Below are positions 45,974-48,792 of a stretch of 64,000 bases of DNA, piece after piece. The stretch is from an uncultured Gemmatimonadales bacterium (GTDB lineage Bacteria; Gemmatimonadota; Gemmatimonadetes; Gemmatimonadales; GWC2-71-9). The notes under the pieces were generated by a model. The model searched no databases. It worked only from the letters and a program-made list of their open reading frames with translations, and was not told the DNA's origin. The number at the start of each line of letters is the position of its first letter. Positions within the stretch are counted from its first letter, which is position 1. Where the stretch lies: the NCBI GenBank assembly GCA_963695555.1, contig CAVOGR010000007.1:206139-270138 (forward strand), in the 5' to 3' direction. Both the position numbers and the translations under genes were made by a program.

Positions 45974-47144
45974 TTGCACTTCAGTTGCCCGGGACTTGTT
46001 CAATACCTTCTCGAGACGGGCTGGCTCACAAGAGCCAGCCTAGTCCGGGCTATGCTCGAGATCGTTCCCGTTGGACGACGCAATCGAAATTTCCGCGTGA
46101 TGATCGGAAAGTCGGGGGGCCTTTTCGTTAAGCAGATTCAACGCGACGAGGTCTGCTGCGTGGCACACTGTGCGGCGTGAAGCACTCTTCTATCGTGAAG
46201 TGGCAGCACGGGAGCCACTGAAGGAAATGCGCCCGCTTGTGCCCCGCTTCTTGGGATGGGATGCCGAACGAAGTACGGTCATCACCGAACTTGTCGAAGA
46301 GGCACAGACACTCCTCGCCGTCTCAGGGCAACCAGGGCAACATCGTTTTGCGATGATTGGCCGCACATTGGCTGCGGTCCACGGTTCGCGGGATGCGCTG
46401 AGCCGAGAGCAATCCTTGCACCAAGAGCTTGAGAATCGGGTACCTTGGATCCTGGACCTTGCGATGAATCCCTCCGCATTCATCCGAATTGGTGGGGGCG
46501 ACATGATTACGTTCCTGGCGCTCCTGGAGGAGTATCCAGCCTTATTGAAGTGGCTAGGCCACGCGCGGTCCGCGTGGGTTTGCGATGCCTTTATTCATGG
46601 CGACCTGCGCTGGGACAACATTCTCCTCGTCTCGAAGAACGGCTATTCCTCAAGGGTGGTTTTCGCGGATTGGGAACTATACGATCTTGGGGACTCTGCC
46701 TGGGATATCGCGACCATCATCAGAGATGCTTTGTTGATCGAGTTCTTTCAGCCAGGCTCCCTTCGGGCCCGCGGCCCCGCGATCCCGGCGCTGCTGGCAG
46801 CCTATCTCGATTGCCGGCCGGCACTGCGGCCAGACTTTGGCCAGTGGCGCTCTCGGGTAGTCATCTACGCTGTCACTCAGTTGTGTCTTGCTGCGTTCGA
46901 GCAGCTCGCCGCTCGCGTCCGTGCTGGCAATGAGGTGCGGGCTTTAGTGGGTTGGGCGGATCAGCTTGGTCGTTCGACTGAGAGCGCTCGACTGGGTCTT
47001 CCCGGATGTCCGAGTCCCTTAGTCGCGCGGCTATCCGCCAGGCGATCACGTGGGTCCTCCGGGATCTACGGTTGTATCCCGCTGCCTTCATGCTGCGGGG
47101 CCGAGCCTACCCGTTGCCCCCCCAGCCAGGAGATCATTTACTAG
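45974..47144 (+). pseudogene. aminoglycoside-phosphotransferase / protein-kinase-like-fold kinase (LanK-like), frameshift near 46155, 3' end uncertain
   Basis: N-lobe RNFRVMIGKSGGLFVKQ in the 45974 frame. Catalytic FIHGDLRWDNILL and DWELYDLGDSAWD in the 46170 frame. Confidence 0.6.
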
Positions 47145-48004
47145 CGCTCCGCGCGGCCCTTCAGCAAGTACTGTACGAGGTCTGTTACACCCGCCTATTG
47201 TCTGACTCCACATTCGACCAGTGGCGACCCAGTACCACGTCGGATGCCGACAATGGGTTCACCGAAGTGTTGGCTCAGGCTGTCGGAGGGGCCCCGCGCT
47301 GGGAAGGGGGGTGGCGCGCAGCGAGCTCACCTGGGCCCGAAGGCATTTGGCTCACGAAACGTGAAACCTGTCGATGGGCCCAGACAGGCCACTACCTTCC
47401 AAGTTCGGAGGCCGGCCTCGATGGATACATTTGGCTTCTGATTCACCGTGAATGGCGGCACCCACTGCCCGGCTTCTACTTCATCAATGGAAGGACTCCA
47501 GGCGACGAGTGGGACGAGGCGCACCCGGCACGTTTCTACCTTCATACGCGCGCATCAACGGCAGTTGCCGTGAGCGAAATAGTCGTGAAGTTGCTGGACA
47601 CCTACGAGGTCCCGTTCCGTTTCAAGACGCTGAACGTGGCATCCATGTACGATCGAGCCGACGCTAGCGTGCTCTACGTTGGAACACAGCACGCTGCCGT
47701 CGTCGAGCGGCTTTTGCGGTATGCTTTCGCGAACGGGTCAAGCCGATGGCTGGACGAATCAGTCCCACTATTTACCATGTGCATCATTCCTGGGGTTGGG
47801 TTCGCCGTGGACCCGGGTACGGGAGAAAGCTTCGGTACAGACAGATGCAGGATCCTCGCCGAAGGAATCCTTGACGCTTGGCAAACCGGCGATACATCCG
47901 TCGATGGACGCTGGAGCGCAGTGGAAGCCAGATTCGCTGCCGTGGGTGTCGATTTGGATCACGCATATCTCGGCGTTGATCAGGCCTCGTGGTTCGAATG
48001 CTAA
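47006..48004 (+). CDS. HopA1-effector-family-like protein (class V lanthipeptide LanY-type candidate lyase)
   Basis: 332 aa. ARFYLHTRASTAVAVSEIVVKLLDTYEVPFRFKTLNVASMYDRADASVLYV matches my recollection of the HopA1-family core (..FK....Y.R.D..V.Y.). Confidence 0.5.
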   Translation: MSESLSRAAIRQAITWVLRDLRLYPAAFMLRGRAYPLPPQPGDHLLALRAALQQVLYEVCYTRLLSDSTFDQWRPSTTSDADNGFTEVLAQAVGGAPRWEGGWRAASSPGPEGIWLTKRETCRWAQTGHYLPSSEAGLDGYIWLLIHREWRHPLPGFYFINGRTPGDEWDEAHPARFYLHTRASTAVAVSEIVVKLLDTYEVPFRFKTLNVASMYDRADASVLYVGTQHAAVVERLLRYAFANGSSRWLDESVPLFTMCIIPGVGFAVDPGTGESFGTDRCRILAEGILDAWQTGDTSVDGRWSAVEARFAAVGVDLDHAYLGVDQASWFEC

Positions 48005-48792
48005 GAGGCGCTCTGTCCCCGGCAGCGTCTCTGGAGGTGGCCACCCGCATCGGGCGGCGGCTGTGCCGGGATGCCATCTGGGACCACGATTGCTGTACTT
48101 GGCTCGGGTGGCAACCCCCGAACGAGAGCGCGGACATGGTCCCCGTCTACGGCGCGTGTGGAGGTGGATTCTATGATGGAACCGCCGGCATCGGCTGCTT
48201 CCTGCAGCATTTGAGTCAAGCGAGCCCGGATCCGCTTGTCCGTCTCACAGCGGACGGCGCTGTCCGTCAGGCCATCGGGATCGATACCGCGGCCATCCCA
48301 ATATTTCCAGGTTCTCGCAGGCCTCAGGGCTCTCACCGGACAACTGTCGTTGACGCTCTTGCTGTCCTCCGTTGGAGTCTGAAAGAGACCGAGTCAGTTG
48401 GCGAGGGGGGAATCTGCAACGAGGAGATTCGCCACGCTGCTCAGTTGCTCATAGACCACCTCGGCTTCAGCCTTCAGCAGAGTTGGCTCCCGGCTTCGAT
48501 GTTCGATGGGTGGTGTGGCGTCGCCGATGCGCTGCTCCTGTATGAGTGCCACAATCCAAACGCCGGTGCTAAATCCGTTGTCGAAGCAGTAGCAGCAAAG
48601 GCATACACGGTCCACGAACAATGGGGAATTCCCTGGCCCTGCGGCGGACCTGGAGGCGCCGAGACCCCCGACCTCTTACACGGCCTCGCCGGAATCGGGT
48701 GGTGCTATCTACGACTTGCCGATCCGCTGGCCGTGCCTTCGCCGTTTGCCCTGGTGGCCGGGAGGGAGAACGCGCCTGAAGGAGATAAATAG
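47989..48792 (+). CDS. LanC-like (lanthionine synthetase C-like) protein, short
   Basis: GG-repeat motifs GGFYDGTAGIGCFLQHL, FDGWCGVADALLLY, WPCGGPGG and LLHGLAGIGWCYL. The canonical C-H-G reads L-H-G (48676-48684). Only 267 aa. Confidence 0.55.
   Translation: MVRMLRGALSPAASLEVATRIGRRLCRDAIWDHDCCTWLGWQPPNESADMVPVYGACGGGFYDGTAGIGCFLQHLSQASPDPLVRLTADGAVRQAIGIDTAAIPIFPGSRRPQGSHRTTVVDALAVLRWSLKETESVGEGGICNEEIRHAAQLLIDHLGFSLQQSWLPASMFDGWCGVADALLLYECHNPNAGAKSVVEAVAAKAYTVHEQWGIPWPCGGPGGAETPDLLHGLAGIGWCYLRLADPLAVPSPFALVAGRENAPEGDK

Follow-up and report, generated by a model that had tools for sequence, protein, structure and literature searches.

The three adjacent genes at positions 45974-48792 of a 64,000-nucleotide stretch of DNA from an uncultured Gemmatimonadales bacterium (GenBank assembly GCA_963695555.1, contig CAVOGR010000007.1, positions 206,139 to 270,138 of the forward strand; hereafter the window) probably encode a three-piece Ser/Thr dehydratase of the lanthipeptide type. 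Its predicted components are an APH-fold kinase, a HopA1-type lyase and a short LanC-derived protein, which would act on the Cys-free repeat protein encoded immediately upstream and would carry the reaction no further than dehydration. The three genes point in the same direction and overlap one another, as a preliminary description of the sequence had stated. The same description had proposed that the trio may only install dehydro-amino acids; with no Cys-containing substrate at hand and the zinc ligands of the cyclase absent, this is also the best reading of the present data. Throughout the analysis we relied on two relatives, a metagenome contig (L001) in which the whole gene order of the window is reproduced with every gene intact, and a second locus (L002) that reproduces its downstream half. 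In L001 the repeat protein is encoded at 6858-7997, the kinase at 8002-9063, the lyase at 9053-10030, the LanC-derived protein at 10018-10791 and an Ala/Asn protein, discussed below, at 2023-2715. The genes at the centre of the argument are the following.

44343-45907, forward strand: probable substrate, consisting of an N-terminal domain and a Pro/Thr/Ser/Trp repeat tail (intact L001 orthologue, tblastn, tandem repeats).
45974-47144, forward strand: LanK-like APH-fold Ser/Thr kinase, in two open reading frames (ORFs) (Pfam APH, NCBIfam LxmK via L001, motifs).
47006-48004, forward strand: LanY-type (HopA1 family) phospho-Ser/Thr lyase, intact (Pfam HopA1, conserved Arg/Lys/Arg/Tyr).
47989-48792, forward strand: LanC-derived short protein of 267 residues (alignments, motif census, AlphaFold2 (AF2) model, Foldseek).

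The identity of the lyase is the clearest of the three. The 47006-48004 protein matches the Pfam HopA1 family with an E-value of 2.9e-30 (105.8 bits; cutoff 22.7), which bears out the family assignment of the preliminary description. Residues R176, K207, R217 and Y224 are invariant in five HopA1 homologues, and their spacing of 31/10/7 compares with 32/10/7 for R187, K219, R229 and Y236 of the class V lyase CaoY, in which three of the residues were found by mutagenesis to be required for eliminating the phosphate (PMC9486802). In the database, HopA1 is called as a gene of 304 aa from 47090 onwards; homologues span 98% of the longer, 332-aa form.

The kinase is read from two ORFs, 45974-46180 (frame 2) and 46170-47144 (frame 0), and displays the motifs FVKQ (46124), HGDLRWDN (46596-46619) and DWELYDLGD (46668-46694). 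Pfam APH matches the fragment with an E-value of 1.2e-4, at 22.3 bits against a cutoff of 23.2. For the intact L001 kinase of 353 residues, the best NCBIfam model is class V LxmK (E-value 2.6e-19), at 69.5 bits against an equivalog cutoff of 315. Together the motifs and matches sustain the APH/protein-kinase fold read earlier from the HGDLRWDN and DWELYDLGD signatures, and what had been called a split kinase turns out, on comparison with the 353-aa orthologue, to reflect a net +1 frameshift at about 46141-46156. It is the only APH-like gene in the cluster. The FVKQ, HGDLRWDN and DWE motifs are common to the window, L001 and L002 kinases, and that orthologues of only 44-55% identity have kept them speaks for activity having been under selection since Cys was lost from the substrate. 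The kinase ORF extends 139 nucleotides into the HopA1 ORF (47006-47144), and similarity to the L001 kinase ends at 47012.

The third protein (47989-48792, 267 aa) matches the Pfam LANC_like family below its cutoff (1.2e-4) and the LanM cyclase region at 3e-13. Its AF2 model (predicted local distance difference test (pLDDT) score 84) contains eight helices, and the best Foldseek matches of the model are the cyclase domains of CylM, LicM2, CuvL, LanCL1/2 and PneKC, in keeping with the LanC-like character ascribed to the protein before. The template-modelling (TM) scores of these matches are only 0.3-0.56, which fits a partial toroid. A sequence search of the PDB with the short protein gave no match, and its placement comes from fold comparison and from alignment through full-length relatives. 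In this alignment, the short protein retains the first repeat and the final two and is missing the central ~170 residues present in 22 full-length relatives; it therefore falls short of the complete α/α toroid of seven helix pairs (~400 aa).

Alignment of one full-length relative (L007) to LicM2, LANCL1 and NisC identified the hallmark motifs FSHG, WCHG and LCHG, and WCHG and LCHG are retained in most full-length LanC-like proteins encoded beside related HopA1 genes. The short proteins of the window, L001 and L002 have no central segment, in which FSHG and WCHG reside, and the LCHG position reads F-D-G, A-Q-G or A-D-G in the three of them (F-D-G at 48502-48510 in the window). As judged from alignments and motif census, the canonical LanC zinc site is gone from the window protein: neither the Cys/Cys/His zinc ligands nor the catalytic His (xSHG) is found. 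The preliminary description was thus right in seeing a cyclase devoid of zinc ligands; the L-H-G tripeptide that it had cited as the altered C-H-G pair does exist at 48676-48684, but lies in the last helical repeat and not at the C-H-G position, the earlier equation of the two being a misalignment. At that last-repeat site, the 22 other relatives have no His and mostly read L-[ML]-L-G.

Two features are peculiar to the three short proteins, a W-C-G tripeptide (48511-48519) three residues after the former ligand position and the x-H-G at 48676-48684; neither occurs in the 22 other aligned relatives. One could imagine that the short LanC is still catalytic, with a site rebuilt from Cys176 of W-C-G, the gained His231 and Cys218 of PWPCG, and that it adds a nucleophile other than a substrate Cys, for instance a side chain of the tail or, as with LanCL enzymes, a thiol that is a small molecule. 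The two inner helices that remain carry the conserved, clade-specific Cys and His at their N-termini, the three short orthologues are strongly conserved, with a mean column identity of 67%, and class III cyclase domains function without zinc ligands (PMC9486802). We nevertheless consider a rebuilt active site unlikely, as the toroid has lost its central ~170 residues and with them the catalytic His motif, and the eight-helix model scores low against complete LanC folds.

The upstream gene at 44343-45907 most probably encodes the substrate of the trio, as its sequence and setting indicate. In the window, its ~100-residue N-terminal domain (N-dom) lies in frame 0 and its tail in frame 2, separated by two net +1 shifts near 44812 and 44838, and in tblastn against the window gene frame 3 changes to frame 2; the L001 orthologue is a single intact ORF of 379 residues. 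The gene contains an 81-bp tandem unit in 8.8 copies of 97% identity. Read in the corrected frame, the window tail of 357 residues comprises 112 Pro, 94 Thr, 36 Ser and 26 Trp residues and not a single Cys or Lys, and Pro precedes 74 of the 94 Thr residues. The L001 tail (254 residues) and the partial L002 tail (...SLPTQSLPTYSLPT...GYGGWR) are also devoid of Cys.

An alternative, His/Asp-rich frame of 44343-45960 with GLTPD/HGTDD units, which the preliminary description had favoured, was rejected as another frame of the Pro/Thr-coding repeat, because the intact L001 orthologue reads Pro/Thr-rich in one ORF; the true frame is Pro/Thr/Trp-rich. Neither the Thr/Ser residues of that discarded frame nor the TNTNTS stretch of a second candidate (39435-40127) hold up as the target, as family-wide synteny indicates the Pro/Thr-rich frame of 44343-45907 instead. 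That both candidates are free of Cys has been confirmed. An unannotated small peptide had also been suggested as the substrate. A six-frame scan for small ORFs covering 38.7-52.4 kb returned 27 ORFs rich in Cys and Ser/Thr, all of them inside known genes in other frames except for three at 38.7-39.5 kb; these three have no counterpart in L001, and none was accepted as a precursor. With both candidates and the small ORFs checked, no Cys-containing precursor for (methyl)lanthionine or for aminovinyl-methylcysteine (AviMeCys) was found.

The pairing of the trio with such a protein recurs in other genomes. A word-indexed search with the HopA1 protein retrieved only four homologues, of which those more distant than L001 and L002 lie beside a full-length LanC. 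GTDB genomes, scanned with a HopA1 alignment, yielded 80 loci belonging to many phyla, and JGI metagenomes, scanned independently from the LanC side with the three short LanC proteins as queries, yielded 60 loci. In all, 140 related loci were fetched. When the ORFs of the GTDB loci were searched with the window proteins, the trio was present almost everywhere, and 49 of the 67 GTDB loci with enough upstream flank had an N-dom gene, in the same orientation, directly upstream of the kinase. The same N-dom partner was seen in 24 of the 60 metagenome loci. The window and L001 conform to this arrangement, with co-directional kinase, HopA1 and LanC-like genes and an N-dom protein immediately upstream.

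Searched exhaustively with HMMER, N-dom alone yielded 1005 representatives of clusters at E≤1e-3. It (~100 aa) always stands at the N-terminus, in proteins of 80 to 1200 residues, and the tails that follow it have median contents of 9% Cys, 9% Thr and 14% Pro (146 family representatives), the Cys count tracking the Ser+Thr count with r = 0.93. Tails encoded beside LanC proteins with zinc motifs have a median of 10.8% Cys (39 tails), the 24 metagenome tails hold 5.4-12.2% Cys, one of them reaching 144 Cys in 1,443 residues, and TPLHGCPP and CPTxxxxC are typical tail motifs of the relatives. Against this median of 9-11%, the absence of Cys from all 357 residues of the window tail stands out.

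The parent family is varied in form. Giant N-dom proteins, with stop-to-stop ORFs of up to 1,443 residues and up to 144 Cys, are exemplified by L100, L106, L107, L113, L051 and L044; their tails contain ~11% Cys, 10% Thr and 15% Pro, and their genes lie upstream of kinase, HopA1 and zinc-motif LanC genes. Such giants were found in Acidobacteriota, Pseudomonadota, Chloroflexota, Verrucomicrobiota, Gemmatimonadota and other phyla. Undibacterium and its relatives have a short form of the tail with three Cys, and one carrier is in culture (Undibacterium pigrum DSM 19792, locus L025). At L012, positions 674-1294 encode a protein that resembles a precursor and in which a 25-residue core (GPTGVQHCTAAPAYCGNTAWHGCPG) occurs three times in tandem; it may represent the short Undibacterium-type tail with several cores, and possibly stands between substrates of peptide size and those of protein size. 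In L062, L064, L071, L073, L076, L078 and L083, which belong to Thermoanaerobaculia and other Acidobacteriota, HopA1 and LanC share one frame in stop-to-stop ORFs of ~780-1160 residues, which points to fusions of lyase and cyclase; at most of these loci no N-dom partner was detectable upstream.

On the HopA1 tree, the window, L001, L002 and L011 form one clade (Shimodaira-Hasegawa-like approximate likelihood ratio test (SH-aLRT) support of 97), within which the three members with a short LanC are grouped with a support of 100. The clade is made up of the window, two metagenome relatives and one metagenome-assembled genome. None of its four members has LanC zinc motifs, and the Thr/Pro-rich repeat proteins encoded upstream are Cys-free or nearly so. 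L011, the next relative of the short-LanC members, has a full-length LanC without WCHG or LCHG; its partner is a 598-residue Thr/Pro/Gln repeat protein with a single Cys in the portion read and no detected N-dom. The central ~170 residues are missing in the window, L001 and L002. The metagenome scan with the three short LanC proteins added no further member, as all 60 loci encode a full-length LanC with zinc motifs, and the clade stays at four. A second pair of zinc-less loci, L056 and L077 (Pyrinomonadaceae), has no recognisable upstream partner protein.

The substrate has thus lost its Cys and the cyclase its zinc site in concert, and nothing else speaks as strongly for the pairing of enzyme and substrate or for a pathway that ends with dehydration. 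The catalytic residues of kinase and lyase and the LanC remnant are conserved among orthologues of 44-55% identity, which speaks for a Cys-free state that works, as opposed to one in mere decay.

From these observations we infer the following course of events. The LanK-like kinase would phosphorylate Thr and Ser residues of the repeat protein, and the HopA1-type LanY lyase would eliminate the phosphate to yield dehydrobutyrine or dehydroalanine. The ~100-residue N-dom would serve as a leader-like region, and the tail would offer 94 Thr residues, mostly in Pro-Thr pairs. The ancestral cassette is envisaged as forming (methyl)lanthionine cross-links in Cys/Thr/Pro-rich tails by means of a zinc-dependent LanC. 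In the window clade, Cys and the cyclase active site would have been lost together, and with both gone the pathway should stop at a poly-dehydro-amino-acid product. The LanC remnant, without the canonical zinc site and with half of the barrel, may have been retained as a structural or substrate-binding subunit. More tentatively, and with rather less than even confidence, we regard the cassette as a 'post-lanthionine' system that makes a Pro-rich protein, or peptides of the 27-residue repeat, carrying dozens of dehydrobutyrines, with the LanC turned into a subunit that is non-catalytic or re-tooled and a nearby protein of aldo-keto reductase (AKR) fold perhaps processing the product further.

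Whether the cassette could operate in this particular organism depends on the nature of the frameshifts. Compared with the intact L001 proteins, four consecutive genes carry seven net +1 frameshifts, all within 42.7-46.2 kb: at about 42717 and 43094 in a radical S-adenosylmethionine (SAM) gene, at about 43510 and 44163-44193 in a methyltransferase gene, at the two sites in the repeat gene given above, and once in the kinase gene. The remaining cluster genes and large genes elsewhere in the window are intact. Because synonymous sites have reached saturation in the comparison of the window with L001, non-synonymous divergence and the absence of stop codons were used in place of the ratio of non-synonymous to synonymous substitution rates (dN/dS). 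The corrected frames contain no nonsense codons, and non-synonymous divergence does not differ between the two sides of each shift. A search of sequencing runs with the kinase region found no run that holds it.

One explanation is that the frameshifts are real and the cassette is dead here, the kinase, repeat, methyltransferase and radical SAM genes being pseudogenes and the HopA1 and LanC genes leftovers. Seven shifts across four consecutive genes would agree with it, as would the intactness of large genes elsewhere in the window, which indicates that the assembly is not generally error-ridden, and the base composition of the cluster: third-position G+C is 0.64-0.74 in the 38-52 kb block against ≥0.8 in the surrounding genes, in a window of ~65% G+C overall. 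Natural decay would, however, be expected to leave a mixture of changes in which deletions are commoner, and all seven shifts are an extra base. The absence of nonsense codons and the unchanged divergence on either side of the shifts also speak against decay, as do the intact cluster genes on both flanks and the clustering of the shifts about an almost perfect 81-bp array and a stretch of 68% G+C, the kind of place in which assembly and polishing often go wrong. On the shared direction of the shifts, the lack of nonsense codons, the even divergence and the proximity to the array, we think it fairly likely that the frameshifts are assembly or polishing errors; a dead cassette is the less likely explanation, and one to be taken seriously. 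The pathway is functional in this assembly only if the shifts in the kinase and the three genes upstream are such errors. Even a dead cassette in the window would be compatible with the dehydration mechanism for the intact relatives.

The genes that flank the trio and the repeat gene are listed next.

39435-40127, forward strand: Cys-free Ala/Asn protein of 230 residues with a C-terminal DUF5969 (Pfam DUF5969).
40163-42124, forward strand: B12-binding radical SAM C-methyltransferase of RiPPs (peptides made by ribosomes and modified after translation), intact (NCBIfam TIGR03975, 421 bits against a cutoff of 282).
42118-43243, forward strand: radical SAM/SPASM protein, frameshifted twice (weak YydG-type epimerase match).
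43207-44300, forward strand: HemK/PrmC-like N-methyltransferase, frameshifted twice (family matches).
48792-49118, forward strand: small membrane protein of the SdpI/YfhL family (Pfam SdpI, 2e-12).
49126-50700, reverse strand: convergent α/β hydrolase of 524 residues (Pfam Hydrolase_4, 7.8e-10; Peptidase_S9, 0.013).
50754-51641, forward strand: AKR-fold protein of 295 residues, denoted x298 (AF2 and Foldseek).

Downstream of the trio, the start of the SdpI-family gene overlaps the stop of the LanC-like gene; the SdpI-family protein is conserved in L001 and L002. The hydrolase, which gives an S33-type match and a weak match to S9 prolyl oligopeptidases, is likewise syntenic in both. It is plausible that these two proteins provide immunity and processing functions, respectively, with the hydrolase as the candidate processing peptidase. 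The window copy of x298 has no Pfam or NCBIfam match; its AF2 model (pLDDT 79) finds AKRs in Foldseek at an E-value of 1e-10 and a TM score of ~0.65, consistent with an AKR-type TIM barrel. The gene occurs in nine of the fetched loci (window, L001, L002, L008, L010, L011, L013, L120 and L128), and where this could be judged by HopA1 score or tree position, the carriers are all among the closest relatives. Judged by secondary-structure positions, the Lys and His of the canonical AKR tetrad are not evident in x298. With the modelled fold as the guide, one may speculate that x298 reduces dehydro residues.

Upstream, the Ala/Asn protein, which is 82% identical in L001, has a core in which Ala and Asn alternate and matches no NCBIfam model, including the NHLP model; no mention of DUF5969 was found in the searched literature. 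Its ORF stays open for 194 more codons upstream, from GTG 38853 (38853-39434), the first ~120 residues being receiver-type-like; L001 has only a 280-nucleotide gap in place of this extension. The radical SAM/SPASM protein scores 71 bits against a cutoff of 300 in its YydG-type match.

This neighbourhood recalls the biosynthesis of polytheonamide, and the trio might accordingly dehydrate the Thr/Ser residues of TNTNTS in the Ala/Asn protein, in the manner of PoyF. The genes for the Ala/Asn protein and the B12-dependent radical SAM, radical SAM and HemK-like enzymes do share an operon with the trio in the window and L001, and L011 and L024 also have B12-dependent radical SAM genes near the trio. 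Homologues of the Ala/Asn protein were, however, found in only two of 88 trio-bearing sources (87 loci and the window), namely the window and L001; it is therefore not a family-wide partner, a role that falls to the N-dom repeat protein. L011 combines the trio, a B12-dependent radical SAM gene and a Thr/Pro repeat protein, and has no Ala/Asn protein within 10 kb. In addition, it is at the C-terminal end of its core that the Ala/Asn protein has the Thr/Ser residues, whereas PoyF modifies an N-terminal Thr. Neither position nor co-occurrence thus favours the analogy to a single N-terminal dehydration drawn in the preliminary description, and we judge a polytheonamide-type role of the trio to be quite unlikely. 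The Ala/Asn protein could still be an additional substrate, and the radical SAM, radical SAM/SPASM and HemK-like enzymes may act on it, on the repeat protein or on both.

Several points weigh against the proposed dehydration of the repeat protein by the trio. The Cys-poor clade consists of four members, one of them a partial contig, and the window kinase is frameshifted. In 18 of the 67 loci with sufficient flank, no upstream N-dom protein was detectable. The short LanC retains its clade-specific Cys (W-C-G), the gained His (x-H-G) and the universal Cys of PWPCG, from which a remodelled active site could be built; the AKR-fold protein of the nine loci could process dehydro residues further; and the operon shared with the Ala/Asn protein and radical SAM genes in the window and L001 makes cross-talk possible. 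Finally, the kinase-HopA1-LanC cassettes are known from bioinformatics, and the activity proposed here is a prediction. With these points taken into account, we still regard the dehydration of the Cys-free repeat protein as the probable function.

A close biochemical precedent is provided by class V lanthipeptide synthetases. As in the LanK/LanY pairs of this class (CaoK/CaoY, LxmK/LxmY) and TvaC/TvaD of the thioamitides, adjacent overlapping genes encode an APH-fold kinase and a HopA1 lyase, and the window lyase keeps the Arg/Lys/Arg/Tyr set of CaoY, so that phosphorylation followed by β-elimination would be expected. The preliminary description went further and equated the trio with the three-component architecture known from lexapeptide, cacaoidin and pristinin. 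This does not apply, as the third component of class V, LanX/CaoX, is a kinase-fold protein of the APH family and not a LanC (PMC9486802; PMC12291118), whereas the third gene here is LanC-derived. Unlike class V clusters, the window cluster has no kinase-fold LanX, LanD decarboxylase or F420 reductase; its kinase scores 69 rather than 315 bits on the LxmK equivalog; and its substrate is not a short peptide, but a repeat protein on the scale of 500 residues with a 100-residue N-terminal domain. Since this substrate has no Cys, neither lanthionine nor aminovinyl-cysteine (AviCys) can form.

The trio is instead of the HopA1-LanC cassette type noted in genome mining by Eyles et al. (2021, PMC8153245), who left such clusters uncharacterised; no later characterisation of these cassettes was found in the searched literature. 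The adjacent phosphotransferase, HopA1 and LanC-like genes are shared with those clusters, and our 140 relatives include both separate and fused HopA1-LanC forms. The window clade differs from them in a LanC without zinc ligands and a partner without Cys, and the LanC of the window, L001 and L002 also in the absence of ~170 residues. Large N-dom partners rich in Cys, Thr and Pro are not described in the accessible text of PMC8153245.

Class III LanKC and class IV LanL enzymes likewise unite lyase, kinase and LanC-fold functions, and the LanKC cyclase, too, lacks zinc ligands. Unlike in these enzymes, the functions reside on separate polypeptides in the window, the lyase is by sequence of the HopA1 and not the OspF type, the LanC is truncated rather than merely ligand-less, and the substrate is Cys-free, whereas LanKC and LanL substrates hold Cys. 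With the polytheonamide proteusins (PoyA, PoyB/C, PoyD, PoyE, PoyF) the locus has in common a TIGR03975 B12-dependent radical SAM enzyme, a radical SAM protein weakly similar to epimerases, a HemK-like N-methyltransferase and a nearby Asn-rich protein. In contrast to PoyF, which is of the LanM-N-terminal type, the window dehydratase is of the kinase/lyase type and is tied by co-occurrence to the repeat protein and not to the Asn-rich one; the Asn-rich protein has a C-terminal DUF5969 and no NHLP match.

Beyond the remark on HopA1-LanC clusters, we found no description of the Cys-rich N-dom family in the searchable literature. The parent family thus seems to be large and undescribed, and the window clade its rare offshoot. 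With at least 1005 N-dom clusters, the family would carry lanthionine chemistry beyond peptides, to substrates of protein size, and cultured carriers such as Undibacterium pigrum DSM 19792 make the parent cassettes testable. The window clade amounts to a natural experiment, in which Cys and the zinc site vanish together while the kinase, the lyase and a LanC remnant are kept; it allows a non-catalytic role of the LanC scaffold to be asked about, and it predicts a ribosomally made, Pro-rich polymer or set of peptides that would be loaded with dehydrobutyrine.

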